A stretch of 64,000 nucleotides of DNA from Candidatus Zixiibacteriota bacterium (GCA_043819555.1 JBDREQ010000003.1:122973-186972); one strand, 5' to 3'; positions 48,091 through 64,000 are shown, counted from the first letter of the stretch. Notes: generated by a model from the sequence alone, not told the origin. Translations and numbers: made by a program.

Positions 48091-49296
48091 GTGCCGGTAT
48101 ATTCATATTCGAGAATAGGGTGTTTTGAAAATTGCCCCCGCCAGTACAAGTTTAAATATATAGAGAAGCCTCCAATTGAGAAGGTAACCGGAATCGAAGC
48201 GTTTATGGGTACAATGGTTCATGATGCCCTCGAAAAATGTTACCTCATGGCGATGTCTGAAAGAATCCTTGATGAAGAGGAATTAATCACGACATATAAA
48301 AAGGGTTGGTCTGATTCGAAACCGGATAATCTTAGAATTGTCAATTCGGATATTACGGAGGATGAGTTTATTCGAGTTGGGGAAAAAGCGCTGCGCTTGT
48401 ATCACCAAAAACATTTTCCATTTGATGATGAACTGACAATTGGACTTGAGAAAATGATTGTTTTTTCACTTGATGATGAAAACCAGTACAAAATGCAAGG
48501 TTTTATTGATCGATTATCCCGGGATGGCTCAGGTCGTTTGCGGATTCAGGATTATAAGACCAGCGGGCGGTTGCCTACTCAGGAGGAGGTTGATTCGGAT
48601 AGGCAGTTAGCTTTATATCAAGTGGCGGTCGATAAGATGTGGCCGGATAATAATGGAATCGAGTTGGTCTGGCACTACCTGCGTTTTGATACGAGTTTAG
48701 TGTCGTATCGAAGTTCGGATGCGTTAGACAATGTATGCCGGGAATATATCAAGAAGATAAAGAAGATTGAGAAGGCTGTTGTTTTGGATGATTTTCCAGT
48801 CAATGAAAGCCGTTTGTGCGATTGGTGCGAGTATAATTCAATTTGTCCGGCGAAAGTGGATATAAATATTTTATCTGAAAAAAAGCAAACTGAATTAGCT
48901 TTTTTGGGTGCGGAAGCGCAAAAAATCCTTGTTGATGATTATATCGCTTATGAGGTGGGTATTAAGGATCTGTTGGAGAAACAAAACCGGATAAAAGAAA
49001 AGTTGCTGGAGCTTGGAAAAGAAGGCCGCGATATTTATATCAGGGGAAGCGGGGGAAATGGTGTGTTGATTTCTGTTCGTAAGTCGGAAAAATTGCCGAC
49101 CAAATCGTCTGATTCCGGGAAATTTAAGGCCATAAGTGAAGTGATAAATGATGCGGGGATATTAGAGAACTATTCTTCACTCGATATAAGGAAGGTGCAG
49201 AGGGCATTTGATAATTTTGATTTTCCGGACAGTGTTCAAAAAAGGCTGGCAGAGTTTATAGAAGCGACCGTTAGGGGATCGATAAAAATTAAATAG
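48091..49296 (+). CDS. PD-(D/E)XK nuclease, RecB/AddB/Cas4-like, with 4Fe-4S cysteines
   Basis: SYS...CPRQY, G..VH, GFIDR, DYKT, QLALY, LCDWCEY...CP. Confidence 0.88.
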   Translation: MPVYSYSRIGCFENCPRQYKFKYIEKPPIEKVTGIEAFMGTMVHDALEKCYLMAMSERILDEEELITTYKKGWSDSKPDNLRIVNSDITEDEFIRVGEKALRLYHQKHFPFDDELTIGLEKMIVFSLDDENQYKMQGFIDRLSRDGSGRLRIQDYKTSGRLPTQEEVDSDRQLALYQVAVDKMWPDNNGIELVWHYLRFDTSLVSYRSSDALDNVCREYIKKIKKIEKAVVLDDFPVNESRLCDWCEYNSICPAKVDINILSEKKQTELAFLGAEAQKILVDDYIAYEVGIKDLLEKQNRIKEKLLELGKEGRDIYIRGSGGNGVLISVRKSEKLPTKSSDSGKFKAISEVINDAGILENYSSLDIRKVQRAFDNFDFPDSVQKRLAEFIEATVRGSIKIK

Positions 49297-51456: not shown

Positions 51457-51732
51457 TTGTTTGCCCCTTATACCAAAGAATTGTTAATAAAGCCCCAAAA
51501 AAGTGAATCTGTAACCACTCTAATGAGATTTTACGGAATAACTGTTAAATTATTGACTATTTTTCGCGCCTCCCAATTTTCGCTATTACAATGTCCAAAA
51601 AGAATTTAGTTGATTGGGGTTAATATGTCAAGAAGGGTGATTGCATTTGATTTTCTGGTATATCAATTTCAAAGGTGATTTGGCAATATTTCTGAATTCT
51701 CCCCATTAATAAAAAGCAGTGGAGGTTTATCA

Positions 51733-53001
51733 ATGCGCGAAAAATACAACAAGTATAATGATGTCTCAGAACCGGTTATGGTAAGTTCGATTCGGGGGGA
51801 CAAGTTGAAAAGAGGCCGGTTATCCGAAAACAGGTTTTTGGGAAATAGTTTAAGTTTTAAATCCGGAGAATACCGAGAAAGTAGATTTCGGATTAAACTA
51901 TATCGATTTATGGCTGAATCAATTCCCCTGGTCAGCTCAGTCATATGGACGTGGAGCCGTCTGGCGGCGGCACCCGGGAAATTTATTTTATCTAAAGATG
52001 ATAAGCAAATTGAAAATAACCGGGCCAGACAGACCATAGAGGATTTATTCAGGCGGATTATAAAGGAGAATTTCGGTCACAGTGGATCGATTAATGAAAT
52101 ATTGCCGGCGTTTTTCCAATCGCTGTTTCTCGATGGCAATGTCGCGGGGCAGATAAAATTGCACAGTGATATGTCCGGAGTTGAGAGTTTTCGATTTTTT
52201 GATATGTCAAAGAGCGAAGTTGAAATATCATCTCGGGGAGATATAAAAATAGTGTCCGCAGATGAAAAAGGTGAGAGGGCATATTCGGGCAATGATCTGT
52301 TCTTTTATGGCCATAATAGCGATTTATCCAATCCGTATGGAAAATCGATTTTAAAAGCGGTTTCGTTCGTTTCCTATGTAGAGCAACAACTGGTAGATGA
52401 TATGAGGCGGGCGACGCATAACGCCGGTTATCATAGATTGCATATTAAAATAAAGCCTCCGGAAAAGAAAGAGGAGGAAAGCGATGAGGCGTATGTCCGC
52501 CGGGCTAATAGTTATTTTGACGATACAGTTTCGATGATTCGCGATATCGAGACGGAGGATAATCCGGTAACCTGGGATGATGTAGCAATTGAGTACATCG
52601 GACCCCGGATGCAGGGCGGCGCACGCACGAGTAATTGGTATCTGACACATCGAGCAATGATTGAGGAAATATGCAGCGGCACGAATCTGGCGCCATTTCT
52701 TTTGGGCTATTCCTATAACGCTACGACCAACTGGGCACAGTTTAAGTATGATCTTGTGATGCGACAGGTTCATTCGGCGCAATATGCAGCCAGGAATTTT
52801 ATGACATGGCTGGCCAATATTGAATTGGCTCTTAAAGGATTCAAGTTAAGGGCGGATTGGGAATTCGATAATAATTTTTCGGCTCTGGCAAAAGAACAAA
52901 CCGATACCAAAAGCAAACAGGCGGCCTATATTATTGATTTGTTTAATGCCGGGTTGATTGATCGTGACGAGGCAGCGAAAAAAGCAGCGGGGTTGCTCTA
53001 A
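51733..53001 (+). CDS. Putative phage portal protein
   Basis: LYR.M...P.V, LFLDG, NPYGKSIL, I.SG...PFLLG, T.NWA..Y, AGLIDRDEA; size and position next to TerL. Confidence 0.75.
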   Translation: MREKYNKYNDVSEPVMVSSIRGDKLKRGRLSENRFLGNSLSFKSGEYRESRFRIKLYRFMAESIPLVSSVIWTWSRLAAAPGKFILSKDDKQIENNRARQTIEDLFRRIIKENFGHSGSINEILPAFFQSLFLDGNVAGQIKLHSDMSGVESFRFFDMSKSEVEISSRGDIKIVSADEKGERAYSGNDLFFYGHNSDLSNPYGKSILKAVSFVSYVEQQLVDDMRRATHNAGYHRLHIKIKPPEKKEEESDEAYVRRANSYFDDTVSMIRDIETEDNPVTWDDVAIEYIGPRMQGGARTSNWYLTHRAMIEEICSGTNLAPFLLGYSYNATTNWAQFKYDLVMRQVHSAQYAARNFMTWLANIELALKGFKLRADWEFDNNFSALAKEQTDTKSKQAAYIIDLFNAGLIDRDEAAKKAAGLL

Positions 53002-53054
53002 TCGAAACAGGCAAAAAACTCTTTGAGCCGGGTCGGGTAATCTGGAGAAAAGCT

Positions 53055-54353
53055 TTGCTTGACCCGGTTTATTTTTCTCAAAAAGTATTAAATATAAATC
53101 CTCATCCGGGCCAGGCCGCCTGGTTGCGGGGTTCCTATCGGCCTGAGAATCTTTTGGCGACGGGCAATCGCTGGGGGAAATCGTATGTCCAGGCGATAAA
53201 GATTCTTCACCGCGCATTATTTAAAATTCGCTCTCTGGAAAATGACGGCGATGGCCATTACAATATAGTAGTTGCCTCGATAACACAGGATCAGGCCAAT
53301 ATAATTTTTAATACGGCTGTGCGAATTGTAAGATCAAATCAAATATTTTCGGGTCTGGTTAAGTCAATTAAAAGAACGCCATATCCAATAATGACATTAG
53401 GCAATAACGCAGTAATAACGGCAAGAACGACCCAAAACCGAGGGAATTATTTGCTGGGCAATGATTATGATTTTTTTTCGTTTGATGAAGCAGCGTTTGA
53501 GGTCGAACCGGAGTATGTTATAAATGATGTCGTCATGATGCGGTTGGCTGACAGAAACGGTCGATTGGATCTGATTTCAACTCCAAATGGCAGGAATTGG
53601 TTTTATCGCCGGATGTGTGAATTACAGAAGGATGCGGGACGCGGGTATGTGCAATTAGGGGACAGCCGCGATAACCCTTACCTTTCTGAAATGGCATTAA
53701 AAACCAGATTAAGGCAATTACCCGCTGATCGTGTGGCCCAGAATATCGCGGGACAATTTATTGATAACAATCGCACGATATTTTCATCCGAAGATATTGA
53801 TCATGCCTTAACAACAGATAAACTCGATTCATTTAACTCTGAGCGAAAATATATTTCGGGGTGGGATCTGGCTCGCAAGCAGACACATACGGTCGGAATG
53901 ACGTTTGATGTTACCGAGAAGCCATACAAACTCGTCGCCTTTGATCGCTTTAATAATCGCGATTGGTCGGATGTGGTGGGAGTTATCAGACGTCGACAGG
54001 CTGAATATAAAAGTAAGATAGTCATTGACGCGACCGGGCTGGGTGATGTGATTATTTCCGAGTTATCGGATTTGAAGCCAGAAGGGGTTATTTTTACAGT
54101 CAAGACTAAATCTGAGCTATTGGGGAATCTATTGCTTCTTCACAATCGCAAAGAAATAAGGTATTGTGATATGGTCCAGTATGAAGATAAGGCAATCAGG
54201 TGGAGTTTGGAAGATGAGATGCGAGAGATAACCTGGGATAATAATAATAAATTTGACGCCGAGATGGCAATGGCATTAGCTGTATGGCCCAAGAGAAGCA
54301 GGATATTATTTCCAGCTAGCGGTCCGGTTCCAGTCAGGGTTTCAACTATTTAA
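53055..54353 (+). CDS. Large terminase subunit
   Basis: PHPGQ, Walker A GNRWGKS, Walker B FSFDEAA, ISTPNG, DNPYL; nuclease acidic motifs GWDLAR, IDATGLG, FDAEMA. Confidence 0.9.
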   Translation: MLDPVYFSQKVLNINPHPGQAAWLRGSYRPENLLATGNRWGKSYVQAIKILHRALFKIRSLENDGDGHYNIVVASITQDQANIIFNTAVRIVRSNQIFSGLVKSIKRTPYPIMTLGNNAVITARTTQNRGNYLLGNDYDFFSFDEAAFEVEPEYVINDVVMMRLADRNGRLDLISTPNGRNWFYRRMCELQKDAGRGYVQLGDSRDNPYLSEMALKTRLRQLPADRVAQNIAGQFIDNNRTIFSSEDIDHALTTDKLDSFNSERKYISGWDLARKQTHTVGMTFDVTEKPYKLVAFDRFNNRDWSDVVGVIRRRQAEYKSKIVIDATGLGDVIISELSDLKPEGVIFTVKTKSELLGNLLLLHNRKEIRYCDMVQYEDKAIRWSLEDEMREITWDNNNKFDAEMAMALAVWPKRSRILFPASGPVPVRVSTI

Positions 54354-54376
54354 AAACCGCCTTTGTCAAAAGCGGT
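54352..54376. terminator. Terminator-like hairpin between terL and a convergent small gene
   Basis: accgcct-ttgtcaa-aagcggt preceded by an A tract (T tract on the minus strand). Confidence 0.5.
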
Positions 54377-54412
54377 GGAAACAGGGATTTATATTTTTTT
54401 AGATGGCTTTTA

Positions 54413-54517
54413 TTAAAAGCTGTACACATCTGCAAATGTGATTAGCATTCCCAGAATAAAGACAATTAGTCCGGCTACCCAGGCGTAAGATTTTTTGTCT
54501 TTTTTGTATGTAACCAT
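54413..54517 (-). CDS. 34-aa hydrophobic peptide missing from the track
   Basis: MVTYKKDKKSYAWVAGLIVFILGMLITFADVYSF* with double TAA; GGAG/AAGG RBS; sigma54 site upstream. Confidence 0.6.
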   Translation of the reverse strand: MVTYKKDKKSYAWVAGLIVFILGMLITFADVYSF

Positions 54518-54552
54518 GATCCTTATCTCCGGTTATTGTTTGATTTCATTAA

Positions 54553-54568
54553 TGCAAGATTTGTGCCC
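54553..54568 (-). promoter_or_regulatory. sigma54 -24/-12 promoter
   Basis: GGGCAC-AAATC-TTGCA on the minus strand, 35 bp upstream of the ATG at 54517. Confidence 0.65.
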
Positions 54569-54750
54569 GAATGGTGTTCAATAATTTAACAGCGCTAATC
54601 ACTTGGCATACAAAAATATCCAAAATTATATATGGAAACCGGCGGCAATCTCCGATTAAATATGCAAACTAATGTTAAACTTGGGCGAAATTAACGGCAA
54701 ATAACCGCAGATTATGGAACCTCCGGCTTAATTAAAAAGCTGGAGGATAA

Positions 54751-56616
54751 ATGGCAAAATTATCAGGACGGTTGACAGCAAAGCTGGCCGAAAAGAGTGA
54801 AACATATGATCAATCGTTAGTTGATGAAATCAATCAGCGAATTAGACCACCCCGATCAATTCTGGAAAAAGATGTATATATCAGGGCAATGTATATTGTT
54901 TCGGACAATATTAATAGCCAAGGGGGACGATTTGGCGAAAATGAACTTGATGCTTTGACTGATTTAATTATTGACGCACCGGTGATGATTGGGCATCGTC
55001 GCGATAGTTTGCCGGTAGCGCGGAATTTCAAGGCAGAAAGAGTTAATATTGACGGGCGTCAATGGGTCAAGGCCTATTTCTACTGGATGAAGGACAGTGA
55101 AGGCGCCGTTGATTTCAAGAATAATATGGATGGCGGAATTTATAAGGAATGTTCAATCAGTTTTTTGTTTTCTTTCCCCGAATGCAGTATTTGCGGTAAG
55201 GATATTCGGCAATGCCATCATGTTCCGTTTGAAGAATATGATTCTCCTGGTGGAGACCATGCAATAGCTCATTTCTGGTATAGGAAAATAGAAAAAGTAC
55301 TCGAAACATCTCTGGTTTTCAGAGGGGCCATTCCGGATACGCGGATAACCGACAAATTGCATGAAAATGAAAAGGAAAAAGTGCAGTTGTTTACCAAAGC
55401 GAGAACTAAGGATTTATCAAATCATAAAACCGGCCTTTCGCGTTCACGTTTGGGTTGCTTGAATCCGAACAGAACAACAATTCCCAATGGTCAGAAACTA
55501 TGGGTATATCCTTATCAACCGGGATTATTAATCAGAATTAAAAAGCAAAACAAAGAAATCAATTATGAATCACCGGTTTTGCTATCAGAAAAAGTCAGAA
55601 ATCGCTTGAATTCAAGATTAGAACTGGTGCCACAGGAATCATTTATTGTTGACGCTCTTCTCTATTCTACCCGGGGGAAAGACAGGCTCAATGGTTTTGG
55701 CCTGGCCAATCTCCTCGATTCTGGAGATCAATTGCATCGTTTGAAAATTCGGTTTTGTGATCTGTTGGAATATGAAGATGATTCTTACACGGAGAGTGAT
55801 TTTGCGTACCGCATAAAAAGAATGTCTGCGGTTTTTAAGATGGATGTTGGAATTGAAATATTTAATCCCAGATTGATCACTCAGGATGAATTGTCAATAT
55901 TTCTGAAGGGGGATAAATCAACTCAATTCAATTTTGGTATTGAAATACTCGCTGAAGATAATGCCAAGTGTCTCTCGCGATTTTTGACCAATGGGAGCAA
56001 TCTGACCGCAGGGGAAGTTAAATCAATTGATAGAATTAATAAATCTCAAGTTCTGTGCGGAGTGAGTTTGATCCATGATCACGATGCGGCGTTTCAAGTA
56101 AATATACCCGCCCATGATTGCCTTAATTCCGGAGCAGTTCTTTTATTATCTGAGATAAATGAAAATTCAAAAGATAAATCCAACCGGTACAAGGTAGTGG
56201 ATATTTTAGTTGGCATGGACGCGGATCGCATTGATGTTTCGAATTCTGATAAAAACCGGGAAGGCGTTTTGTATGCCTGTCAGAATGATAAGCAATTGAT
56301 AGTGGAATTTGTGTGCGACAATAACGTCTATCGAGCTTTAGTTTATTATTATTCACAGAGGTTGATTAATCAAAAGCGGAAATTTATCGCAGATGTAAAA
56401 ATAACTCGGGCAGCTAAAAAGGATAATATACGAGGCGATGAAATCCGTTTGAGTTCAGCGACCCTGGCGGGGAAACTAATCCGATTGAAGTTGATGGATA
56501 AGACAAAATTATTTGGGGATTGCCAGATATTATGGCTGCGACCGGTTCTTATTGATGGAGAAGAAAGATATTTGTTTTACGGGGGCAACGCTAATTATCG
56601 GCCAGAAGAATTATAA
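54751..56616 (+). CDS. Putative prohead protease (with CSICG...CHH insert) fused to a degenerate ATP-dependent-ligase-like domain
   Basis: SDNINS...RF, PVMIGH, GIYKECSI, ETSLVF.GA; C-terminal half with IVDA, FCDLL and R..RM ligase-like motifs; GGAGG RBS. Confidence 0.65.
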   Translation: MAKLSGRLTAKLAEKSETYDQSLVDEINQRIRPPRSILEKDVYIRAMYIVSDNINSQGGRFGENELDALTDLIIDAPVMIGHRRDSLPVARNFKAERVNIDGRQWVKAYFYWMKDSEGAVDFKNNMDGGIYKECSISFLFSFPECSICGKDIRQCHHVPFEEYDSPGGDHAIAHFWYRKIEKVLETSLVFRGAIPDTRITDKLHENEKEKVQLFTKARTKDLSNHKTGLSRSRLGCLNPNRTTIPNGQKLWVYPYQPGLLIRIKKQNKEINYESPVLLSEKVRNRLNSRLELVPQESFIVDALLYSTRGKDRLNGFGLANLLDSGDQLHRLKIRFCDLLEYEDDSYTESDFAYRIKRMSAVFKMDVGIEIFNPRLITQDELSIFLKGDKSTQFNFGIEILAEDNAKCLSRFLTNGSNLTAGEVKSIDRINKSQVLCGVSLIHDHDAAFQVNIPAHDCLNSGAVLLLSEINENSKDKSNRYKVVDILVGMDADRIDVSNSDKNREGVLYACQNDKQLIVEFVCDNNVYRALVYYYSQRLINQKRKFIADVKITRAAKKDNIRGDEIRLSSATLAGKLIRLKLMDKTKLFGDCQILWLRPVLIDGEERYLFYGGNANYRPEEL

Positions 56617-57292
56617 GACGCCGGGTTGCGGCCGCCTTTGAAGCAAGCATCACCAGGCCAACTCCATCAGCATAATATTCGTCAGCGGTTATAAGAGTAT
56701 CGGTGGAGAGTTCGTTCAGGAAAATGTGCGAACGAAAATGATAGGCGTCGTAGGAACTGGTGGGGAGAATGACTTCGCTTTGTTCTATGAATGAACGTTC
56801 TGTAAAAAAACCATAATTTAGATTAAGAAATGAGGTTCGGATTTCGCCAGTATCCGTTACGAACAACGGGGTCGTTATATAAAAAGTTGTACCAATTGTA
56901 TAGAATCGCGGGAGGATAACGGGAGTAGGCACATAGTACAAAGTATCCGGTGGCGCCGCATTGAGTCGAATCTGACCGGAGTGAAGGACACCGACGTCAT
57001 CAAGAGTCAATAAGTCCCGTGCGGTACCATTGGCTGAAAGCTGAACCTGGTCGCCGTGGCCGGAAATGATATCAACATTAATAAATGTAGTGTCAACATC
57101 AACAGAATAGTCGGGATAAAATGTTACCAGTGTATCATAAATGACATAACGAAGTTGGTGATCCCGATTTAGACCAAGCAAATCAGCTCCTTGCGGATAC
57201 GTTACCACAATTGGATTTTCAGAGGATTTATCACATCCGAAACCGATTATCGACCAAGAAATCGCAAGGAAGATGAGTACGGCACTTTTCAT
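56591..57292 (-). CDS. Lipoprotein on the opposite strand inside the capsid cluster
   Basis: GFGC lipobox, C-terminal EYYADGVGLV. Confidence 0.7.
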   Translation of the reverse strand: MKSAVLIFLAISWSIIGFGCDKSSENPIVVTYPQGADLLGLNRDHQLRYVIYDTLVTFYPDYSVDVDTTFINVDIISGHGDQVQLSANGTARDLLTLDDVGVLHSGQIRLNAAPPDTLYYVPTPVILPRFYTIGTTFYITTPLFVTDTGEIRTSFLNLNYGFFTERSFIEQSEVILPTSSYDAYHFRSHIFLNELSTDTLITADEYYADGVGLVMLASKAAATRRLIILLADN

Positions 57293-57367
57293 TACATAAT
57301 CCCTTTTGATATAAGTAAAGCGGAATTAATGGCACTAAGTCAATAAAAAAAAGGAGAGTTTGCGAGG

Positions 57368-57679
57368 ATGAATCAGATAATTTGGTCTCGCGTTAAATCG
57401 TTTCAGTCGATTTTAATGATTTTAATAACGCTGGGATATCTTCTAGGGACGCATCTATCAACGATTAATAGCCTGAAGATGGCTTTGATTAGTAAGGCCG
57501 AACGAAGCGAAGTGGATATGCTGGACAAAAAACTTACAAGAATTGAGGTAAAACTGGAAGAGGCGCTTTTATCGAAACAGGAAATATTCAGTCTGCGGCA
57601 GTGCCTTGAAGAAAAATTAAATGAACTTGCTGTCGAGATGCAACGATCAAGTGAAAGGGCCGGAAATGCCGGAAAATAA
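57368..57679 (+). CDS. Small membrane-anchored coiled-coil protein
   Basis: One N-terminal TM helix, then LDKKLTRIEVKL coiled coil. Confidence 0.6.
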   Translation: MNQIIWSRVKSFQSILMILITLGYLLGTHLSTINSLKMALISKAERSEVDMLDKKLTRIEVKLEEALLSKQEIFSLRQCLEEKLNELAVEMQRSSERAGNAGK

Positions 57680-58103
57680 TATTGAGAATATCTGTCACTC
57701 GCTATTGAGCACACTGGAACTGTTAACAAGTAATTCTGACGGCCCGAATATAAACAGTTGTAATTCAATCCCTACAATTGAAAAAATCGATTTTGACAGA
57801 TTACGCGATGAGTTGGGATTTGTCGCATTACATTTTAAGAATTATTCGCAGAGTAAGAATGACAATGATTTATCTCGGAAGTGGTTAATTGATCGTATTT
57901 GCGCATTTCGTCGGGCTCGCAGCTTTTTACATAACGAGTTACCTCCGCATGATTTTGATGAGTTGAATAATTACACGATGGCGACTTTGATTAGAGAATA
58001 TGAAGATCAAACATCGCAATTGCGGAGGAATATTGGAGGCAATTCAAACCTGTCTATTTCATGCGCCCGACACGGCGCAGAGTTTACTCAATATAAATCT
58101 TAA
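57666..58103 (+). CDS. Helical protein, possible capsid scaffold
   Basis: Position just before the decoration/capsid genes; helical; ends in QYKS. Confidence 0.5.
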   Translation: MPENNIENICHSLLSTLELLTSNSDGPNINSCNSIPTIEKIDFDRLRDELGFVALHFKNYSQSKNDNDLSRKWLIDRICAFRRARSFLHNELPPHDFDELNNYTMATLIREYEDQTSQLRRNIGGNSNLSISCARHGAEFTQYKS

Positions 58104-58175
58104 AGTTGGATGAGGGAGGTTTCCCTGGCCGGCGTTTTATGAAACAGGCCAATCTAAGTAACGAAAGGAGAAATT

Positions 58176-58598
58176 GTGACTATACGCGCTCAAAATTTGG
58201 AAGCGATTAATCCGGTATACGCGACTTTTAATATCCATCAAACCAGCAGTGTTGATGATTTGAAGGATACCAATATCGGAGAGCCGGTAAGTCTTACCGG
58301 GAATTATGAAGTGGGCCGGACATCGGCCGGTTCGATTTTATTGGGAAAGTTGGTAGCTCTGACACTTACCGACAATGATGACGGTGATCGGTTGGCGACC
58401 GTGCAAATTGGCGGTATCTGCACTTTAGCTGTATCCGCTACGGTACCGAGTATAGGCGATCGAGTGGTTGGCGGGACGGCCGGAACGGTCAAGCAGGCGC
58501 CGGTTCTGGCGGCCGATGATCCGGCAGGCGGCAATATCGACCGCGGTACGGTTATCGCAGTCAGCGGTACTTCAACCTGTACCTTAATTCTCAATTAG
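58176..58598 (+). CDS. Putative capsid decoration/cement protein
   Basis: 140 aa, Gly/Thr/Val-rich beta protein (GEPVSL, ATVQIGG, IGDRVVG) directly upstream of the MCP; AAGGAG RBS. Confidence 0.7.
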   Translation: MTIRAQNLEAINPVYATFNIHQTSSVDDLKDTNIGEPVSLTGNYEVGRTSAGSILLGKLVALTLTDNDDGDRLATVQIGGICTLAVSATVPSIGDRVVGGTAGTVKQAPVLAADDPAGGNIDRGTVIAVSGTSTCTLILN

Positions 58599-58604
58599 GA
58601 GGAA

Positions 58605-59714
58605 ATGAAAATGAATTTGGATAGATTTTTCGCGGGTCAGTCTGGTACCGGTTTTTTGGAGATGGCTGAAGCCGAGCCGGAAATTACCGGTCCAATTGAT
58701 CTTTCGCGCGCATCTGAAATTGAAGTATCCCGTGATGCGTATCTTGAAGCGCAATCACGCGGCATGACTTTGAGTGATTTACTGGAAACAGAAGATTATG
58801 ATCCTTCACCGTACGGCTATCCTCTGGATGCATTTGAACGGCAGTTGGCGTTAAGTGGTATCAAAATCAATGGCAAAAACAGCAGTACCGTGGAGTTATT
58901 TTATAAGAACGCACCGGCGCTGCTTCCGGAGTTTATTCTTCGTGAAGTTCGCAAAGGGCAGATGATGCGTCCTGAACTGGATCGATTAATTTCCGGAAGT
59001 ACGGTCATCAATAGTAACCGCTATACGCCGTTTTATATCGATACATCGGATACGACGAAGTTTTCGTTGCGTCCGGTGGGAGAGGGAGCCGAGATTCCTA
59101 CACTGGCCGTTAATGAGCAGAAGCATTCTATAAATGTCATGGATTATGGTCTGGCTCTTAAGACTTCTTACAAAACCCTTCGACATCGCAGTACATCCCA
59201 GTTCAAAGTGTTGCTATGGTACATTGGATTCAGGCTGCAGACCGATAAGATTGCGTTGATCGTCGATACAATTATCAACGGCGATGGGAATGACAATGCG
59301 GCCAGTTCCATCAATTCTGCCTCATCCGGAATCCTGGCCTACGCAGACCTGGTTAAACTGTGGGCGGAATTTGCGCCGTTTGAAATGAATCATATCATCT
59401 GTCACATTGATACTCTTAAGACTATTCTGGCCCTTGATGAATTTAAGGATCCGCTGGCCGGGTATCGTTTCCGTCGTACGGGAGAGTTGTTTACTCCATT
59501 AGGAGCAACATTGGTGCGCAGTGATGATGTCGCGACCGACAAGGTTCTCGGTCTTGATTCCCGCTTCGCGGTTGAGGAAGTAATCAGTCAGCCATTGATG
59601 GTTGAATTTGACAAAATCATCGACCAGAAGTTTGAAGAGGCGGTTATTTCTGAATCGGTATCGTATGCCAAAGTTGTCAACGAAGCATCATCGGTACTTG
59701 ACTATAATTTCTAA
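58605..59714 (+). CDS. Major capsid protein (HK97 fold)
   Basis: LDAFERQL...GIK, LLPEFI.R.V, PVGEGAEIP, YG..L..SY, INGDGN, DKIIDQKFE; AGGAGG RBS. Confidence 0.85.
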   Translation: MKMNLDRFFAGQSGTGFLEMAEAEPEITGPIDLSRASEIEVSRDAYLEAQSRGMTLSDLLETEDYDPSPYGYPLDAFERQLALSGIKINGKNSSTVELFYKNAPALLPEFILREVRKGQMMRPELDRLISGSTVINSNRYTPFYIDTSDTTKFSLRPVGEGAEIPTLAVNEQKHSINVMDYGLALKTSYKTLRHRSTSQFKVLLWYIGFRLQTDKIALIVDTIINGDGNDNAASSINSASSGILAYADLVKLWAEFAPFEMNHIICHIDTLKTILALDEFKDPLAGYRFRRTGELFTPLGATLVRSDDVATDKVLGLDSRFAVEEVISQPLMVEFDKIIDQKFEEAVISESVSYAKVVNEASSVLDYNF

Positions 59715-59725
59715 ACCTAACCAAT

Positions 59726-59751
59726 TGGCCCGGTCTGTTCAGGCCGGGCTA
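59726..59751 (+). terminator. Stem-loop after the MCP (attenuator or mRNA stabiliser)
   Basis: tggcccggtct-gttc-aggccgggcta, without a strong T tract. Confidence 0.55.
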
Positions 59752-59765
59752 TAATTGAGGAGCCA

Positions 59766-61178
59766 ATGGACAAGTTTATTGCCAATAGCAGCGCCACAAA
59801 TCCGCTCGGAATTCCAACCGGGAGGAAGTGCTTCCGCGTTACCGGCGGTCAGTACGCCAATCGTCTTACCATATTATATGCCGCTTCATCATCAAATATA
59901 GTATTAGTTTCCGCGGATCCCCCCTATACAAGCTTTTCGTCTCCGACAACGATTGTAACCGATTCGGCAGATTTGCCTTTTGACGCCGTAATGGATTTAG
60001 ATGGAAACATCTATTTCGCATACACAATTGGAACAAGTAATAATCTTGGATTTGTTAAGCTTACGTTTAGTAGCGGAATTTGGTCAGTGGGATCGCCTGT
60101 TACGGTATATAATGGGGATGATAATTATTACCCATCAATATTGAAAATGACTTCTGATGAGATTGGCATTGCTTTTACAAGGGATTCAAGTGGCACGAAA
60201 TATATAAATTACAAAAAATCAATGGATGATGGCGAAAGCTGGGGAACTGTCTCTGATCCGGGCGATACCTTAACTTCCGGGACAGCTTCGGCTTTTGGGC
60301 AGCCACTTGAATCTCAGGGGTACATTTACACTTTTTTTACCTATGGGGGAACAGGCTTTAGTTATCGCCGGAGGTTAGTAAGCGGATCAACCTGGGAGAG
60401 TGCTGTATCGCTGGCAACCGGTTCAGGATTTGGCGAGAATTTCGATACCGCTGTAAATCCTGACGGACGTATCGGGGCTGCATACGCCACATCCAGCGGA
60501 TTAATGTTTCGTGAGTATTCCGGATCGGTCTGGTCGGGAGAGATATCGCTTGAATCCAATACGGTATTGAATCCGTCAGTGACATATCAAGGGGGAATAC
60601 CTTTTGTCACATATTCCCGTGCGGTTGGAAGCAATATGGATATTGTTTATTATACCAAAAAAGAGGAAAATTCTTTTTCCAGTCCCACCATTCTTGATTC
60701 ACGAAAATCTTATTTCCAAAGTTTGCTGTTATACGATGAATCGGCCGGCTCTATCGAGGATTTGACCTCGGCGGGATCGTCAACCGATAGCGCCGATATT
60801 CTTCATTCAGGTACCGGGGCATTGATTGTTGATACGGGTGATTCGGTATTTTTTGGGATGGACAGACCATTTCATGCCTTGAATTTAATATTGTCGACTG
60901 CCGGAGAAGGAGGAGAAGTAAACTGGCGGTATTTTACCGGTCAAACCTGGCAATCATTTACACCTTCATCCGGTTCATGGCATTTCACGACAACAAATCA
61001 CGATGTATTATTATGGACAGATTATATGTCTATCCCGGATGATTGGCAGAAAAAAACAATTAACGGCGCGGCTATGTATTGGGTGGCGGCGACAGTAACA
61101 TCAACATATACAACCGCGCCAATTGGCAGTCAAATAACAGCGGCATCTGATTTGGGTGCGGTTTCGGTAAAGGATTAA
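59766..61178 (+). CDS. Ser/Thr-rich BNR beta-propeller protein, candidate virion spike
   Basis: Asp-box SMDDGESW, repeated W strands, C-terminal VNWRYF.G..W...WQKKTING..MYWV domain; no signal peptide. Confidence 0.55.
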   Translation: MDKFIANSSATNPLGIPTGRKCFRVTGGQYANRLTILYAASSSNIVLVSADPPYTSFSSPTTIVTDSADLPFDAVMDLDGNIYFAYTIGTSNNLGFVKLTFSSGIWSVGSPVTVYNGDDNYYPSILKMTSDEIGIAFTRDSSGTKYINYKKSMDDGESWGTVSDPGDTLTSGTASAFGQPLESQGYIYTFFTYGGTGFSYRRRLVSGSTWESAVSLATGSGFGENFDTAVNPDGRIGAAYATSSGLMFREYSGSVWSGEISLESNTVLNPSVTYQGGIPFVTYSRAVGSNMDIVYYTKKEENSFSSPTILDSRKSYFQSLLLYDESAGSIEDLTSAGSSTDSADILHSGTGALIVDTGDSVFFGMDRPFHALNLILSTAGEGGEVNWRYFTGQTWQSFTPSSGSWHFTTTNHDVLLWTDYMSIPDDWQKKTINGAAMYWVAATVTSTYTTAPIGSQITAASDLGAVSVKD

Positions 61179-61179
61179 T

Positions 61180-61992
61180 ATGAGTCTTACCAGTGTCAGC
61201 ACAGTGCGCAAGCACTTATATCGATTAAACCTGGGCCAAAGCGAGATCAGGAATTTTGCATTCAGGCTGATTTCGGATAGTTATGTTAGTTTGCCTCATT
61301 CCCATATTGTCACATTATCGGAAACTATCAAAGCGATTGAGAGCAATGTTCCCTATCAGGAGAATATTATCCTGAATGATGATCCGGTATTTTTGTCAAA
61401 TCAAATGGTGGCAGCCGGAACAGTTGTGTGTGCCCGGGATAGTTCGCTCACAGCTGTGTATCGGGAGAATGTTGATTTTTCGATCGATTATGTCACCGGT
61501 ACGATAAAGCGAATTGAAAACGGTTCAATTTCGTCGGGCAATACGGTATCGGTATGGTACTTGTTCTATCATGCCTATCAAAAAAATATTGACTATACAA
61601 TCGATTATGAACGTGGCCGTATTAACAGGCTGGTTTCGGGCAATATTGAGGACGGCCAGGAACTACTCATTGATTATCAGCTGGGGGTAAGTGAGTTTTC
61701 AGATGAGGAAGTAAATCAATGTATTGTGGAGGCCGAAGCCGAAATTCAACTATTGATTGATGTCTCATATTCAGAATCGATAGATCCGGTGCTCCAGACG
61801 ACCGCGACTTATTTATCATTATCATTACTGTGCCGCAATTCAGTCGGCATTGCCCAGGCGGGAGCCTCAAGCAGTACAAAAGATGCCAAATTGTGGCTGG
61901 AACTTTCGGCGTCATACCGGGAAACGGCTATGCGATTGCTGAATTGGTTTCGTCCCGAGAGCCCTCTTATGAACTCACCAAAACTGACTTAA
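61180..61992 (+). CDS. Head-closure/adaptor-like protein with two inserted Ig-like repeats
   Basis: MSLTSV..VR.HL, FSDEEV..CI.EAEAEI, P.LQ..A..L; internal D(F/Y).IDY..G.I.R repeats. Confidence 0.6.
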   Translation: MSLTSVSTVRKHLYRLNLGQSEIRNFAFRLISDSYVSLPHSHIVTLSETIKAIESNVPYQENIILNDDPVFLSNQMVAAGTVVCARDSSLTAVYRENVDFSIDYVTGTIKRIENGSISSGNTVSVWYLFYHAYQKNIDYTIDYERGRINRLVSGNIEDGQELLIDYQLGVSEFSDEEVNQCIVEAEAEIQLLIDVSYSESIDPVLQTTATYLSLSLLCRNSVGIAQAGASSSTKDAKLWLELSASYRETAMRLLNWFRPESPLMNSPKLT

Positions 61993-62003
61993 GGAGAATG
62001 ACA

Positions 62004-62378
62004 ATGAGCATGATGCTTGCATATTTAAGAAGCCGCCGGGCGTGGTTGGTAGAAAATTTATCCGTATGGGGAGTTGATAATGATGCCGAATTTTTTGTAG
62101 CGGCCCAGGAAATTGTCGGTTCCGATAAACGGATCGGATTTTGGAATATATCATTGGGCGGGCAGCAACAGGAAATCGCATTCTCGAGTATAATCGATAA
62201 TCGAGGCAATGCACTTCCGGCTGTTATTCAAAAACCAGCCATTGTTGTAATTCCACGATCACCACAGGGAGCATTTATAAAAAATGTATCGGGAAATTCC
62301 GGATTCGCAATCGTGCGAAACGATGAAGATTCGGCCTCAGCCCTGGTGGATTTATTGATCTTTGAAACAGGGGCATAA
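62004..62378 (+). CDS. Hypothetical protein of the capsid cluster
   Basis: AAGGAG RBS 7 nt before ATG 62004; the track start at 61830 overlaps the previous gene. Confidence 0.6.
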   Translation: MSMMLAYLRSRRAWLVENLSVWGVDNDAEFFVAAQEIVGSDKRIGFWNISLGGQQQEIAFSSIIDNRGNALPAVIQKPAIVVIPRSPQGAFIKNVSGNSGFAIVRNDEDSASALVDLLIFETGA

Positions 62379-62386
62379 ATTGAAAA

Positions 62387-62611
62387 ATGGGCCGGAAAAA
62401 AAAGAGGAGATTCTCCTCAGATAAGGAATTATTGGATTTTTTGAAGAACACAATTGTCGATCAAATTGATGAAGGAAAAATAAGTCTGAAAGTGGGTGAT
62501 CTTTTGAGAATATTAGAAATTCAGAAAAAGCTCTCTTCGGATAATGATTCCGAGGCTAAATTCTGGGAAATTATCGAGAAAATACGGCAGGAGGAACTGG
62601 GAAGTGAATAG
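62387..62611 (+). CDS. 74-aa helical protein, candidate small terminase without HTH
   Basis: Basic N-terminus, helix-ISLKVGDLLRILEI-helix pattern. Confidence 0.45.
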   Translation: MGRKKKRRFSSDKELLDFLKNTIVDQIDEGKISLKVGDLLRILEIQKKLSSDNDSEAKFWEIIEKIRQEELGSE

Positions 62612-62653: not shown

Positions 62654-64000
62654 ATGCGGTTTATCATCTTTATGTTTGTGCTGTCGTCAGTGTGTCTGGG
62701 CCGAACACCTGTTGGATATAATCAATGGCAGTTGGATAATGGTGAATACCAATCTCAATTTGGCGGGATATTTTACAATTATCAAAAACCGGATTCGACC
62801 TTTGCCCCAATTGAAAATAACTGGATAAACGAAGGTGACACTCTATTTACCAACTATCGGTCAATATTGAAAACGGCGGTCACGGCTAAAGGGCAATCAA
62901 TTGTCACGCTCGATTACAAAGGCAATACTTATACGGTTACACAGACTCCGAAACGGTTAGTTTGGCTCAAGACTGACAACTGGAGCTGGGTTGATATATT
63001 TCCGTCAACATCATGGCCGACGCCAACAATGAATGATAGCGTTTTGCAATGGAATAATATCTTTCCCAGAGTAAATTATCGAATTACTAAACGCAACGGG
63101 GCGGTTCCTCATGCGGTTATGTTTAAACCCGCCTTTCTCGATTCGGCGGTGACACTTTATAATCAACGGTCTGATTCTCAGACAATCGCATTAGGCAATG
63201 TCATGGAATACTCGTTGACTGGAGTTGATGATGCCGATATTGCAATCGGGAATGTACCGAAGCGGATACTGAAAAAGCTCAAGGATTTTGCGTTTGAAAT
63301 CTCAGCTCAGAAATTATTCCACGATACAGTCGAAGCGGATATTCCGGTATTGCAGAGGTGGGTAAAGCTTCAGGGGAAAATATACTGTATTGAGTATGTG
63401 ATGATGTCAGATGTGAAGAGGTTTCACGAAGATTATCCGACGGAAGTAATCTGGCACAATAAGGAAACAACTGTCAAGCCGACAACTAATGACTGTTATA
63501 TTTATCAATATGGGGTTGATGATAATTACAGTACAATGACTGAAGTTCATTGTTGGGGTCATGCAGCTGTGAAAAAGTTGGGCATGTTTTATTGGGATAT
63601 ATCAAGCATAGATGCAAGCGACCAACTTGATAGTGTAGAGATATGTTTTTTCCGGGAATCCCCCAACGTAGAGGAGCAATTATATTTTGCACGCATGACT
63701 ACAGAGTGGCATATAGATGATGATGCTACCTGGAACGAAGCGGACAACGGCAATAATACTGATTGGGTGACAGAAACGGGTGGTGATTATGATAGTTGCG
63801 ATAACGCCTTTTATGTCTGGTGCGATTCTCTAACTGATAAAGGCTAAAATGATCCCGCTCAATATAATGATAGTGTGTTTTCAAAGAGTACGACTGCAGA
63901 TGGTTTATATAATATAGTTCAGGGATGGATAGATGGAACCTATCCTAATTATGGTTTGGGCGTTCAAACCAGTTATACGCCAAATAATTATTATATAACA
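62654..64000 (+). pseudogene. Secreted DNRLRE-domain protein interrupted by an in-frame TAA at 63845-63847
   Basis: Signal peptide; DCYI...DNY, FYWDISSI, ATWN, GGD; the same frame continues after the stop with IVQGWIDGTYPNYGL. Confidence 0.6.

Follow-up and report, generated by a model that had tools for sequence, protein, structure and literature searches.

Gene content of the locus

Near the end of the 64,000-nucleotide stretch of DNA analysed here (the window), which comes from a genome of the uncultured phylum Zixibacteria, lies a cluster of 11 phage-type genes: a portal, a large terminase (TerL), a phrog_16951-type head protein, small proteins, a phrog_4588 protein, an HK97-type major capsid protein (MCP), a propeller protein, a gp6-like adaptor, and two last proteins of 124 and 74 aa. 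Their coordinates and those of the neighbouring features are collected in Table 1. The ORFs lie at the coordinates where the first-pass annotation had placed them, they are full length and free of frameshifts as it had stated, and of the strong ribosome-binding sites that it mentioned, that of the portal is a GGAGG sitting 8 nt ahead of the ATG. A crude k-mer count over 30 upstream regions finds no conserved upstream motif besides this site.

Table 1. Features of the phage-type locus and its immediate surroundings, in window coordinates.
Feature	Position	Strand	Remarks
Phage-type cluster	51733-62611		11 intact genes, all frames open
Divergent intergenic region	51457..51732	.	Separates the minus-strand TPR lipoprotein gene from the portal gene, whose ATG follows a GGAGG ribosome-binding site
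Portal protein, 422 aa	51733..53001	+	phrog_3753 E 4.5e-22
Large terminase TerL, 432 aa	53055..54353	+	TTG start; phrog_2 E 7.9e-40; Pfam Terminase_6N E 5.4e-7
Non-coding gap, TerL to head genes	54354..54750	.	No ORF of at least 35 aa; no Rfam match
621-aa head protein	54751..56616	+	N-terminal phrog_16951 domain; degenerate ATP-dependent DNA-ligase-like domain; poorly conserved C-terminal part
233-aa lipoprotein gene	56591..57292	-	Lipobox-like N-terminus; inserted on opposite strand
103-aa protein, scaffold position	57368..57679	+	Hydrophobic N-terminal segment, coiled-coil C-terminus
160-aa ORF, scaffold position	57621..58103	+	Poorly conserved
140-aa virion structural protein	58176..58598	+	phrog_4588 E 1.5e-8; directly before MCP
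Major capsid protein (MCP), 369 aa	58605..59714	+	phrog_3922 E 2.3e-64; HK97-fold class
470-aa propeller protein	59766..61178	+	Seven-bladed Asp-box beta-propeller and C-terminal beta-sandwich; lectin- or glycosidase-like
270-aa head-to-tail adaptor	61180..61992	+	gp6-like helical core with inserted Ig-like beta-sandwich (residues ~22-168)
124-aa beta-rich protein	62004..62378	+	Head-closure or neck position
74-aa helical protein	62387..62611	+	Basic N-terminus (GRKKKRR)
397-aa secreted, highly variable 'slot' protein	62654..63847	+	Signal-peptide-like N-terminus
End of contig C3	63848..64000	.	Next gene interrupted by a gap; locus resumes on the reverse strand of contig C56

The profile matches in Table 1 bear out the portal, TerL and HK97 capsid assignments of the first-pass annotation. 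Its claim that TerL carries all of the ATPase and nuclease motifs holds as well. TerL consists of an ATPase and an RNase-H-like nuclease domain. The Walker A sequence TGNRWGKS is present in all 25 sequences having residues there (the remaining 5 are full length and in one frame by tblastn), the Walker B pair D144/E145, S175-T176-P177, D271 and D325 are kept in 30/30, and D401 in 29/30. TerL is found in 29 of 31 related loci; the portal stands upstream of the MCP in 29 of these 31 and, as originally described, before TerL (29/29). No small terminase is recognised in Pfam/PHROG-type searches. The gap that follows TerL measures at least 200 bp (202-2894) in 30/30 loci measured and is probably a break between two transcription units.

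Four of the head-region proteins (621-aa, 140-aa, MCP and 470-aa) are each present in 31/31 loci. The 621-aa protein matches phrog_16951 (E 7.1e-14, residues 27-165), a family of unknown function that stands between portal and MCP in related phages, and its N-terminal part matches 16/32 viral loci. It had been called a prohead protease, a role that the matches do not support: the N-terminal 200 aa match phrog_16951 only, with no Pfam family even at E<=5. Further along, the profile matches archaeal DNA ligases (E 0.002-0.008, positions 249-390), and PF01068 is carried by 100% of the 58 members of the closest ESM Atlas cluster, which is from Zixibacteria; neither the lysine of the ligase KYDG motif nor the glutamate of EGELV is kept, and the domain is predicted to be catalytically dead. 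At the scaffold position, the 103-aa protein occurs in 25/31 loci and has a weak match to RNase_Y_N (coiled-coil; E 0.0028), while the 160-aa ORF has BLAST matches in 3/31 loci, a 137-aa gene taking its place in other families. Among the small proteins of the cluster, the 140-aa protein is the best conserved (median identity 66%, mean column identity 74%), and its family also precedes the MCP in the phage contigs L013 and L020. Of the label 'decoration' first given to it, membership in a virion structural family stands; a role as a decoration or auxiliary head protein is plausible.

Downstream of the MCP, we rely on predicted structures. The AF2 model of the 470-aa protein (pLDDT 92.4, pTM 0.87) aligns in VIA-align to the PLL lectin 5c9o (Z 25.8), PL25 ulvan lyase (Z 24.6) and the glycoside hydrolase 5mum (Z 23.6). 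Foldseek returns the pseudaminidase 2w38 (E 5.6e-11) and, at rank 4, the portal-tail chain 9efk_M of phage LME-1; 'P22 Gp10' proteins appear at ranks 10, 17 and 26 in BFVD. Among the listed matches, bacterial lectins, lyases and glycosidases (Z 23-26) are nearer to it in fold than any phage protein is; BNR_2 is found in 6/29 members of the family, and no relative of the propeller was found in IMG/VR. The earlier term 'spike-like' is fair given this model, and we regard the protein as a candidate glycan-binding spike or short-tail hub. The adaptor, likewise correctly named by its fold, has a model (pLDDT 83.5) that aligns to the Mu neck subunit 5ydn (Z 9.7), the phiCD508 neck (8.9), the SU10 tail (8.8), the GP4 portal-tail (8.8) and HK97 gp6 (3jvo, Z 8.1). 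It is present in 30/31 loci, as is the 124-aa protein, which has 11 invariant columns and no PDB, Pfam or PHROG match. The 74-aa protein (22/31 loci), with its basic N-terminus, is a candidate DNA-binding protein.

Two further genes belong to the neighbourhood. Only one of the two host-like genes described on the opposite strand inside the cluster is supported, and the other minus-strand ORFs overlap coding genes. This 233-aa lipoprotein has no Pfam or PHROG match, occurs in 9/31 related loci (present in G001 and G002, missing from G016, G014, G047 and G058) and is family-specific, outside the phage-derived set. The 397-aa slot protein has sequence relatives in only 2/31 loci; its G001 orthologue (66% identical) has weak CBM96 and disaggregatase-repeat matches, and in most loci its position is taken by a signal-peptide protein of 230-845 aa; it is probably a conserved neighbour rather than a virion part.

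Flanks, distribution and selection

The window ends where its contig C3 (186,972 bases) ends, 153 bases past the last ORF. On C56 of the same genome the locus continues with the C-terminal 556 residues of a 782-aa homologue, a 108-aa protein, a dockerin protein, lipA, HD-GYP and M50. The right flank in five relatives is of the same kind (secreted-protein genes, lipA, an HD-GYP regulator and an M50 peptidase), the left flank consists of TPR, a 174-aa gene and PD-(D/E)XK, and these host flanks are common to 5/6 relatives examined in full (G001, G002, G016, G014 and G047). In relatives with long (megabase) contigs, the cassette is bounded by the same host flanks. That the cluster looks 'head-only' as an artefact of the contig end is ruled out by these flanks together with the C56 continuation: where tail, replication or integrase genes might have followed beyond the window, neither C56 nor the five relatives has any, and host-type genes stand there instead. 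The co-directional conserved block does extend past 62611, through the variable secreted protein and, on C56, a 500-780-aa secreted protein and a membrane protein of ~110 aa, and the cassette is always found among exported-protein genes (TPR, 174-aa gene, variable slot protein, 782-like protein, dockerin protein). As had been noted, the window has no GC break and no tRNA.

Several phage functions are missing. Neither C3 nor C56 has a tyrosine integrase, all 5 of the genome's matches lying on other contigs. No sheath or tape-measure family turns up in the genome, which is 97% complete, and no replication or lysogeny gene, tail tube or fibre was found with the cassette. Pfam/PHROG-type searches of the locus recognise no endolysin or holin; the only candidates for a lysis function are two single-pass membrane proteins, one of 103 aa and one of about 108 aa.

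The MCP is present in 57/61 relatives and, phylum-wide, in 255 of 285 Zixibacteria genomes (189/198 high-quality genomes, 118/130 genera, 18/20 families), with two matches listed in 12 of the 255 and one in the others; combined with the shared flanks, this describes a single-copy syntenic locus and not a patchy or variable one. Identity is 96% within the genus, 72-83% within the family and 61-70% within the order. In the MCP tree, 67 Zixibacteria sequences form one clade (SH-aLRT 100) separate from 31 IMG/VR relatives, with no nesting among free phages. All 14 multi-member host families are monophyletic, order clade support is 99, and mapping the host-family labels takes 18 changes, the lowest number possible, compared with 62.5 on average after shuffling (0/200 shuffles as low).

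Selection on the cluster is not relaxed. For 10 of the 11 genes, dN/dS (NG86) between the congeners G000 and G001 is 0.03-0.15: MCP 0.028, 74-aa 0.049, TerL 0.051, portal 0.064, 470-aa 0.075, 103-aa and 140-aa 0.077 each, 270-aa 0.087, 124-aa 0.113 and 621-aa 0.152. The highest value is that of the 160-aa ORF (0.336). Flanking host genes are similar (PALP 0.052, TPR 0.120, PD-(D/E)XK 0.164), and dS is 0.37-1.03 in cluster and flanks alike. Since synteny extends over the whole region, a conserved neighbourhood by itself is no proof of function.

Some lineages can dispense with the cassette: 9/198 high-quality genomes have no MCP. In G134 a deletion spans the 103-aa gene to the 74-aa gene and leaves portal, TerL and the 621-aa gene intact, and G024 has portal and TerL alone. 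Such capsid-less lineages could reflect decay or a separate role for portal and TerL. Together with the putatively dead ligase-like domain of the 621-aa protein, the Ig-inserted adaptor and the lectin/glycosidase-like propeller, they are the new details of this analysis.

Interpretation of the cassette

We consider the gene set most likely to encode a virus particle that the host has tamed for its own use, and not to be a prophage. Specifically, we favour, with a probability of roughly 0.6, a particle system of phage origin (a 'viriform') that Zixibacteria have domesticated and pass on vertically, and that would be nearest in kind to gene transfer agents (GTAs). The host-maintained, GTA-like packaging system first proposed for this locus is supported by the fixed locus, the 255/285 genomes, the host-congruent MCP clade and the low dN/dS. 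The genes predict a DNA-filled capsid with a neck and no long tail. The description 'head-only' is sound in that no tail genes lie past the window, and is qualified by the portal adaptor and the propeller, given which there may be a short neck or tail hub.

From the gene set we infer particle formation, packaging of host DNA and transfer, along the following lines. Portal and capsid protein would assemble with the 621-aa, 103-aa and 140-aa proteins into a prohead, into which TerL would pump DNA through the portal, cutting it by headful. Packaging would likely not be sequence-specific, because no small terminase is recognised, and host DNA would be taken up. Closure of the portal vertex would fall to the 270-aa adaptor and probably also to the 124-aa protein, and the propeller-lectin protein would supply glycan binding as a spike or short tail hub. 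Particles would exit by lysis or in some other way and pass their DNA on to related cells.

Everything that speaks for domestication would hold just as well for a capsid system that packages DNA for a host function other than gene transfer, such as defence against phages (by sequestering or cutting the DNA that invades, or through competition for phage parts), programmed release of DNA into the matrix of a biofilm or sediment, or the protection of DNA during stress. We hold this reading to be appreciably less probable than a GTA-like system. It would fit the lack of a recognised delivery device, the constant siting among exported-protein genes and the lineages that keep portal and TerL without a capsid gene; however, the conserved portal adaptor and the predicted glycan-binding propeller are easier to explain by particles docking to cells, and, to our knowledge, wherever the function of a domesticated set of portal, terminase and capsid has been tested, the set is a GTA.

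We think it unlikely that the locus is a fixed 'capsid-only' element, making DNA-filled heads with connectors that would obtain tails from infecting phages (as cf-PICIs do) or from an unlinked host locus (as in multi-locus GTAs). A gp6-like adaptor and a small neck-position protein are what heads use to join tails that are assembled separately, the nearest phages with the same head core are long-tailed, and the cluster has no tail genes. Yet the fixed locus, inherited vertically over 18/20 families with no integrase/replication module, is unlike mobile satellites, the genome holds no sheath or tape-measure family, and dependence on foreign tails over the age of the phylum seems unstable. An ordinary or decaying prophage that lost its tail, lysis and integration genes to the contig end, as the phage-type genes and the abrupt end of the window might suggest, is effectively ruled out by the host DNA on C56, the recurrence of the bounded locus on relatives' megabase contigs, near-universal single-copy presence, the host-congruent MCP tree, the low dN/dS and the lack of an integrase on C3 or C56.

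Comparison with known systems

The closest free phages are distant. MCP identity does not exceed 39% across 32 IMG/VR loci or 36.4% across 5 INPHARED records, and for TerL the highest value among the matches listed (8 of 297 records) is 27.5%. The 470-aa, 270-aa, 124-aa and 74-aa proteins have no tblastn match in the 32 viral loci. Phages with the phrog_3922/phrog_4588/phrog_16951 head core (L013, L020 and others in IMG/VR) share the order portal, phrog_16951, phrog_4588, MCP, but they have TerL before the portal, and their head genes are followed by sheath and baseplate in L013 and by Neck1 and tape measure in L020, tail modules that the cassette does not have.

Among known systems, the cassette resembles the RcGTA-type GTAs of Alphaproteobacteria (Rhodobacter capsulatus; viriforms). 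Both have portal, TerL, an HK97-class capsid protein and a gp6-like adaptor (our adaptor model aligns to the RcGTA virion chain 6tba_2A, Z 8.0), both are without integrase, replication or lysogeny genes, and both are chromosomally fixed, vertically inherited over a large clade and under purifying selection. In contrast to RcGTA, the cassette arose independently in another phylum, its nearest phage MCPs being at most 39% identical; it is without tail tube, tape measure, distal tail genes or a recognised small terminase; its portal precedes TerL; its maturation-position protein carries the apparently dead ligase-like domain; and a lectin-like propeller follows its MCP.

Capsid-forming phage-inducible chromosomal islands (cf-PICIs) likewise have a complete head, packaging and connector set without a tail. 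They are mobile elements with modules for integration (an integrase), replication and regulation, occur at sites that vary and rely on helper phages, whereas the Zixibacteria locus is fixed and host-congruent, with no integrase on its contig. Other described GTAs and defective-prophage particles (BaGTA, VSH-1, Dd1, VTA and PBSX) are host-kept phage-like particles that package host DNA. All have been described with tails, and none is known to range beyond genera or families; the cassette differs in having no recognisable long tail and in spanning 18 of the 20 sampled families of a phylum. Encapsulin nanocompartments, too, are built from a host-kept HK97-class shell protein. They have no portal or terminase and carry protein cargo, whereas the Zixibacteria cassette conserves both a portal and a motif-intact TerL.

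Gene content and surroundings of the cassette

ORF calling across 51733-62611 recovers 11 co-directional, unbroken ORFs and one ORF on the opposite strand, and with profile matches for portal, large terminase (TerL), major capsid protein (MCP) and two further proteins (see table), the phage-type head and packaging genes placed here by the first-pass annotation are real. In the same sequence profiles (Pfam and PHROG) the 470-, 270-, 124-, 74-, 103- and 160-aa ORFs have no clear family, with weak matches only for the 270-aa and 103-aa ORFs. The left flank is made of ordinary genes: methyltransferase, Rrf2, PLP enzyme, glycosyltransferase, PD-(D/E)XK nuclease, a 174-aa exported protein and a TPR lipoprotein. 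We find no tRNA in the 64-kb window, no GC break in the window and no integrase on either C3, the contig that carries the window, or C56, the contig on which we place its continuation, in agreement with the earlier description of a cassette lacking integrase, tRNA and composition break. Rfam has no match in the window at 49-64 kb, promoter and terminator counts do not rise above those in shuffled sequence, and a k-mer search for a shared motif in the upstream regions of related loci recovers the RBS alone.

Features of the cassette and its immediate flanks, with profile matches
Feature	Window positions	Strand	Profile match
PD-(D/E)XK nuclease, 401 aa (left flank)	48091-49296	+	phage 'exonuclease' families phrog_69, E 7.6e-28; phrog_1218, E 7.8e-26
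Portal	51733-53001	+	phrog_3753, E 4.5e-22
TerL	53055-54353	+	phrog_2, E 7.9e-40; Terminase_6N
621-aa protein	54751-56616	+	N-terminus, phrog_16951, E 7.1e-14
140-aa 'virion structural protein'	58176-58598	+	phrog_4588, E 1.5e-8
MCP, major head protein	58605-59714	+	phrog_3922, E 2.3e-64
Slot protein, 397 aa (right flank)	62654-63847		

The PD-(D/E)XK nuclease of the left flank also adjoins the cassette in six other Zixibacteria genomes (G001, G002, G016, G014, G047 and G134), and it could either be left over from the ancestral phage or be a Cas4/RecB-like enzyme of the host.

Because the window stops at the end of C3 (186,972 bases), with its sequence ending 153 bases past the last ORF, the 'head-only' appearance of the module could have been an assembly artefact. 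The end of C3 shares no k-mer overlap (21-127 bases) with any other contig, and the continuation was placed on the reverse strand of C56 by homology to the downstream proteins of the same-genus genome G001. Read in order, C56 encodes the last 556 residues of a 782-aa protein, then a protein of 108 aa, one of dockerin/DUF7451 type, lipoyl synthase, a response regulator that combines GAF with HD-GYP, and an M50 peptidase. The gap between C3 and C56 is inside one gene and hides no tail, lysis or integration block. Elsewhere in this 97%-complete genome we find five tyrosine integrase matches, all off C3 and C56, and no match for sheath or tape-measure families; the lack of a match for PF06841 (tail tube) is uninformative, its control genomes being equally silent. 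Pfam and PHROG scans of the cluster and its flanks find no endolysin or holin family, and the single-pass membrane proteins there are just those of 103 and about 108 aa.

Signal-peptide or lipoprotein-like N-termini are carried by the 397-aa protein in the slot after the 74-aa gene, the 782-like protein, the dockerin protein and the minus-strand 233-aa protein, and a signal-peptide-type start is seen in most slot proteins and most 782-like proteins (29 loci). The genes after the 74-aa gene are probably not virion parts but conserved neighbours, the whole region being syntenic. Since these next genes look like exported, conserved neighbours, their signal-peptide-like starts make 62611, the right boundary drawn earlier, a good limit for the phage-derived set.

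The slot itself holds a hypervariable signal-peptide protein of 230-845 aa directly after the 74-aa gene, both in the window and at the equivalent position of the related loci L058-L133. Behind it lie a secreted protein of 350-780 aa, whose C-terminal beta-sandwich is conserved, and then a single-pass membrane protein of ~110 aa. The profile of the 782-like family has weak Ig-like or adhesin matches among PDB sequences. For the slot, 782-like and ~110-aa proteins, possible roles are those of surface partners or receptors for the particle, or of a release factor akin to a holin; they may also be mere frozen synteny. On four other contigs of the window's genome (C20, C63, C9 and C25), many paralogues found by tblastn with the 747-aa neighbour end in a dockerin-type-I-like C-terminal domain, and in Zixibacteria this domain may serve as a tag by which exported proteins are sorted or anchored.

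Packaging, assembly and neck-position proteins

The Walker A sequence of TerL, TGNRWGKS, is present in 25/25 sequences having residues there; the other five have ORF calls that are too short and are full length in one frame on alignment. Walker B D144/E145, the S-T-P at 175-177 and the nuclease-domain residues D271 and D325 are kept in 30/30 sequences and D401 in 29/30, where the assignment of residues to motifs is one we presume from general knowledge of terminases. With these counts, the proposal of a TerL with ATPase and nuclease motifs is borne out. There is no candidate for a small terminase, with no ORF of at least 35 aa between TerL and the 621-aa gene (a gap of 397 bp in the window, and of at least 200 bp in 30/30 loci) and none upstream of portal. 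The start codon of TerL in the window is TTG; in five of 30 loci (L058, L059, L098, L102 and L116) no ATG, GTG or TTG lies upstream of Walker A, the frame being open and aligned from residue 1-3, which suggests that TerL may there use a rare start codon or be coupled to the portal gene.

The middle of the 621-aa protein (residues ~245-390) is like the adenylation domain of ATP-dependent DNA ligases in a profile search against PDB (E 0.002-0.008), a likeness of fold or of weak sequence similarity at most. The corresponding Pfam family, PF01068, is found in one of 29 members of the 621-aa family (E 0.0076) and in 58/58 members of its nearest ESM Atlas cluster. A true ATP-dependent DNA ligase is rejected, since the motif I lysine (KxDG) and the motif III glutamate are not kept: in the HMMER alignment the KYDG lysine position is A, R, Y, H, L, E, S or Q in 29/29 members, and the ligase EGELV is aligned to d-A-r-L-v. 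The motif I lysine of these ligases is the AMP acceptor, and because it is absent from all 29 aligned members the ligase-like domain would, on that basis, be catalytically dead, with some structural role. We know of no fusion of a ligase-like domain to a phage head-module protein. The N-terminal domain of the same protein has no Pfam family even at E<=5, and for this reason its annotation as a prohead protease stays unproven.

Two of the proteins encoded after the MCP can be approached through their predicted structures. The family model of the 470-aa protein (pLDDT 92.4, pTM 0.87) is a seven-bladed propeller with a C-terminal beta-sandwich, and the sequence has an Asp-box, S-x-D-x-G-x-T-W. 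Its closest VIA-align matches are PLL-type lectins (Z 25.8), PL25 lyase (24.6) and a glycoside hydrolase (23.6); Foldseek against PDB returns sialidase-type enzymes, with a portal-tail chain of phage LME-1 at rank 4, and in the viral library (BFVD) three 'P22 Gp10' proteins of ~500 aa stand at ranks 10, 17 and 26 (TMq 0.35-0.40). A propeller also forms the basis of short-tail hubs such as T7 gp12. For the 470-aa model, bacterial lectin, lyase and glycosidase propellers outscore the phage matches, and the protein has no viral relative in the viral contigs searched.

The family model of the 270-aa protein (pLDDT 83.5) has a helical core with a beta-sandwich inserted at residues ~22-168. Neck or adaptor proteins of phages or GTAs, or YqbG, fill 11 of its 12 best VIA-align rows with Z values of 7.9-9.7, close to the grey zone that the tool sets for helical folds; among them are the Mu neck subunit (9.7), phiCD508 neck (8.9), SU10 (8.8), GP4 (8.8), P74-26 (8.7), JBD30 (8.6), HK97 gp6 (8.1) and the RcGTA virion chain (8.0). 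Because the list is consistent across rows, despite the grey-zone Z values, the predicted fold places the 270-aa protein among gp6-like head-to-tail adaptors (HK97 gp6 / Mu neck subunit class), with its helical bundle. Foldseek against PDB gives this model one match at E<=0.001 (TMq 0.27), and the family profile gives noise only against PDB sequences. From the fold matches of the 270-aa and 470-aa models, the cassette would thus give the particle a portal adaptor together with a predicted glycan-binding or glycan-cleaving protein, and the two may form a minimal tail. The 124-aa and 140-aa proteins have no PDB match by profile search and no Pfam family at E<=5.

Distribution, inheritance and selection

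We find the MCP in 57 of the 61 nearest genomes, at 96% identity within the genus, 72-83% within the family and 61-70% within the order. A profile search across the phylum finds it in 255 of 285 Zixibacteria genomes (189/198 high-quality genomes, 118/130 genera and 18/20 families, the unmatched families being f11, 0/2, and f12, 0/1), with two matches in 12 of the 255 and one in the rest. The order left flank (PD-(D/E)XK, 174-aa, TPR), cluster, right flank is the same in five of six relatives compared over 40 kb each, and the sixth (G058) has the site without portal and most of TerL. In 31 loci taken with 10-kb flanks, the 621-aa, 140-aa, MCP and 470-aa genes are each present in 31, the 270-aa and 124-aa genes in 30, portal and TerL in 29, the 103-aa gene in 25 and the 74-aa gene in 22; portal precedes TerL in 29/29. 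The small 124-aa and 74-aa proteins are conserved. On the flank the 782-like and dockerin proteins are each present in 29 of these loci and the 108-like protein in 22, the minus-strand 233-aa gene is in 9/31, and relatives of the 397-aa protein are in 2/31. One record of 9.6 kb (L110), whose MCP is of the Zixibacteria type (64% identity), bears the title of a Thermoplasmata archaeon MAG, and the titles of several others say Ignavibacteriales; mis-binning or mislabelling of the contigs is the probable cause.

Five high-quality MCP-less genomes were probed with TerL, and four have it intact. In the 99%-complete G134 (L202, G134:C4:146000-165999) the left flank, portal, TerL and a 621-like gene lead directly into the C-terminal part of the 782-like gene, a clean deletion of the 103-aa gene through the 74-aa gene. 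In G024, also 99%-complete (L203, G024:C12:66000-85999), intact portal and TerL stand alone. Therefore, either some lineages can do without the cassette, or the portal-TerL pair has a value of its own.

The MCP tree (quick LG+G4) joins 67 MCPs of Zixibacteria, drawn from 19 GTDB families, with 31 relatives from IMG/VR, one short viral row being left out, and its congruence was judged against GTDB family labels. A branch with SH-aLRT 100 sets all Zixibacteria MCPs apart from the viral ones, all 14 families having at least two members are monophyletic, and the four families of the window's order form one clade with support 99. Family labels change 18 times on the tree, which is the minimum (shuffled mean 62.5, 0/200 shuffles as low); long viral branches affect the rooting, not these family counts. 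Free-phage MCPs come no closer than 39% identity among 32 IMG/VR loci and 36.4% among five INPHARED records, and TerL is at most 27.5% identical to phage records among the best 8 of 297.

Values of dN/dS between G000, the genome of the window, and G001 (NG86) are 0.028 for MCP, 0.049 for the 74-aa gene, 0.051 for TerL, 0.064 for portal, 0.075 for the 470-aa gene, 0.077 for both the 103-aa and 140-aa genes, 0.087 for the 270-aa gene, 0.113 for the 124-aa gene, 0.152 for the 621-aa gene and 0.336 for the 160-aa ORF. The flanks give 0.052 (PLP enzyme), 0.120 (TPR) and 0.164 (PD-(D/E)XK), and dS is alike in cluster and flanks. Selection on the cassette is thus flank-like and not relaxed (0.03-0.15, the 160-aa ORF at 0.336), its presence is neither patchy nor at variable loci, its MCPs form one Zixibacteria clade and do not nest among free phages, and neither the C56 continuation nor the relatives' downstream genes hold tail, replication or integrase genes. 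These outcomes for surroundings, distribution, tree and selection, on which the first-pass annotation had staked its proposal of a gene-transfer-agent-like packaging system, all favour a host-maintained element.

Reading of the cassette and relation to known systems

With a probability of about 0.9, we take the cassette for a phage-derived particle system that has been domesticated and is inherited vertically. That such a system would in addition act as a gene transfer agent (GTA), the best-supported mechanism, is a combined claim that we hold to be somewhat probable. More tentatively, and at less than even odds, it could be a phylum-age, independently domesticated, long-tail-less DNA-packaging particle that uses the lectin-like propeller on a minimal neck to dock to kin cells and passes random pieces of the chromosome to them.

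If this last reading is true, the particle would be a GTA of new architecture, in which portal comes first, a small terminase is absent and an assembly protein has co-opted a dead ligase domain, and no such system outside Alphaproteobacteria is known to be as broadly conserved. To our knowledge GTAs are known from a handful of lineages only, the alphaproteobacterial one being the sole ancient and widespread example. A second independent domestication, across nearly a whole uncultured phylum, would show that the taming of phage heads is a recurrent, stable outcome; it would give a candidate gene-exchange route for unculturable sediment and aquifer bacteria, and structural and synthetic work would gain a compact set of 11 genes for capsid, packaging and neck that lacks a long tail. 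There is also a practical trap, in that prophage finders and virome binning will call these host loci viral. In the literature searched, no paper pairs Zixibacteria with a gene transfer agent or with a major capsid protein, and broader searches brought up nothing on Zixibacteria in titles and abstract openings.

In the phage contigs whose MCPs are nearest, TerL, portal, the phrog_16951 protein, the phrog_4588 protein and MCP are followed by connectors and then by sheath and baseplate in one IMG/VR contig (L013) or by Neck1 and tape measure in another (L020). Because these contigs share its genes, we read the Zixibacteria set as the head core of a long-tailed phage lineage, kept without the tail module; the order differs, with TerL before portal in the nearest phages and portal before TerL in Zixibacteria. 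An integrated prophage is rejected on the lack of an integrase on C3 and C56, of a tRNA in the window and of tail or lysis genes in the C56 continuation and downstream in relatives, and on a distribution that is not patchy. A capsid-forming PICI is rejected on the same lack of an integrase on these contigs, together with the fixed locus and vertical inheritance. An encapsulin, an HK97-fold shell without portal or terminase, is dismissed since portal and TerL are present and conserved here. With GTAs and viriforms, the cassette shares a structural and packaging set free of integration, replication and lysogeny genes (ORFs at 43-64 kb and the relatives' downstream genes), as well as the fixed locus, vertical inheritance and purifying selection found here.
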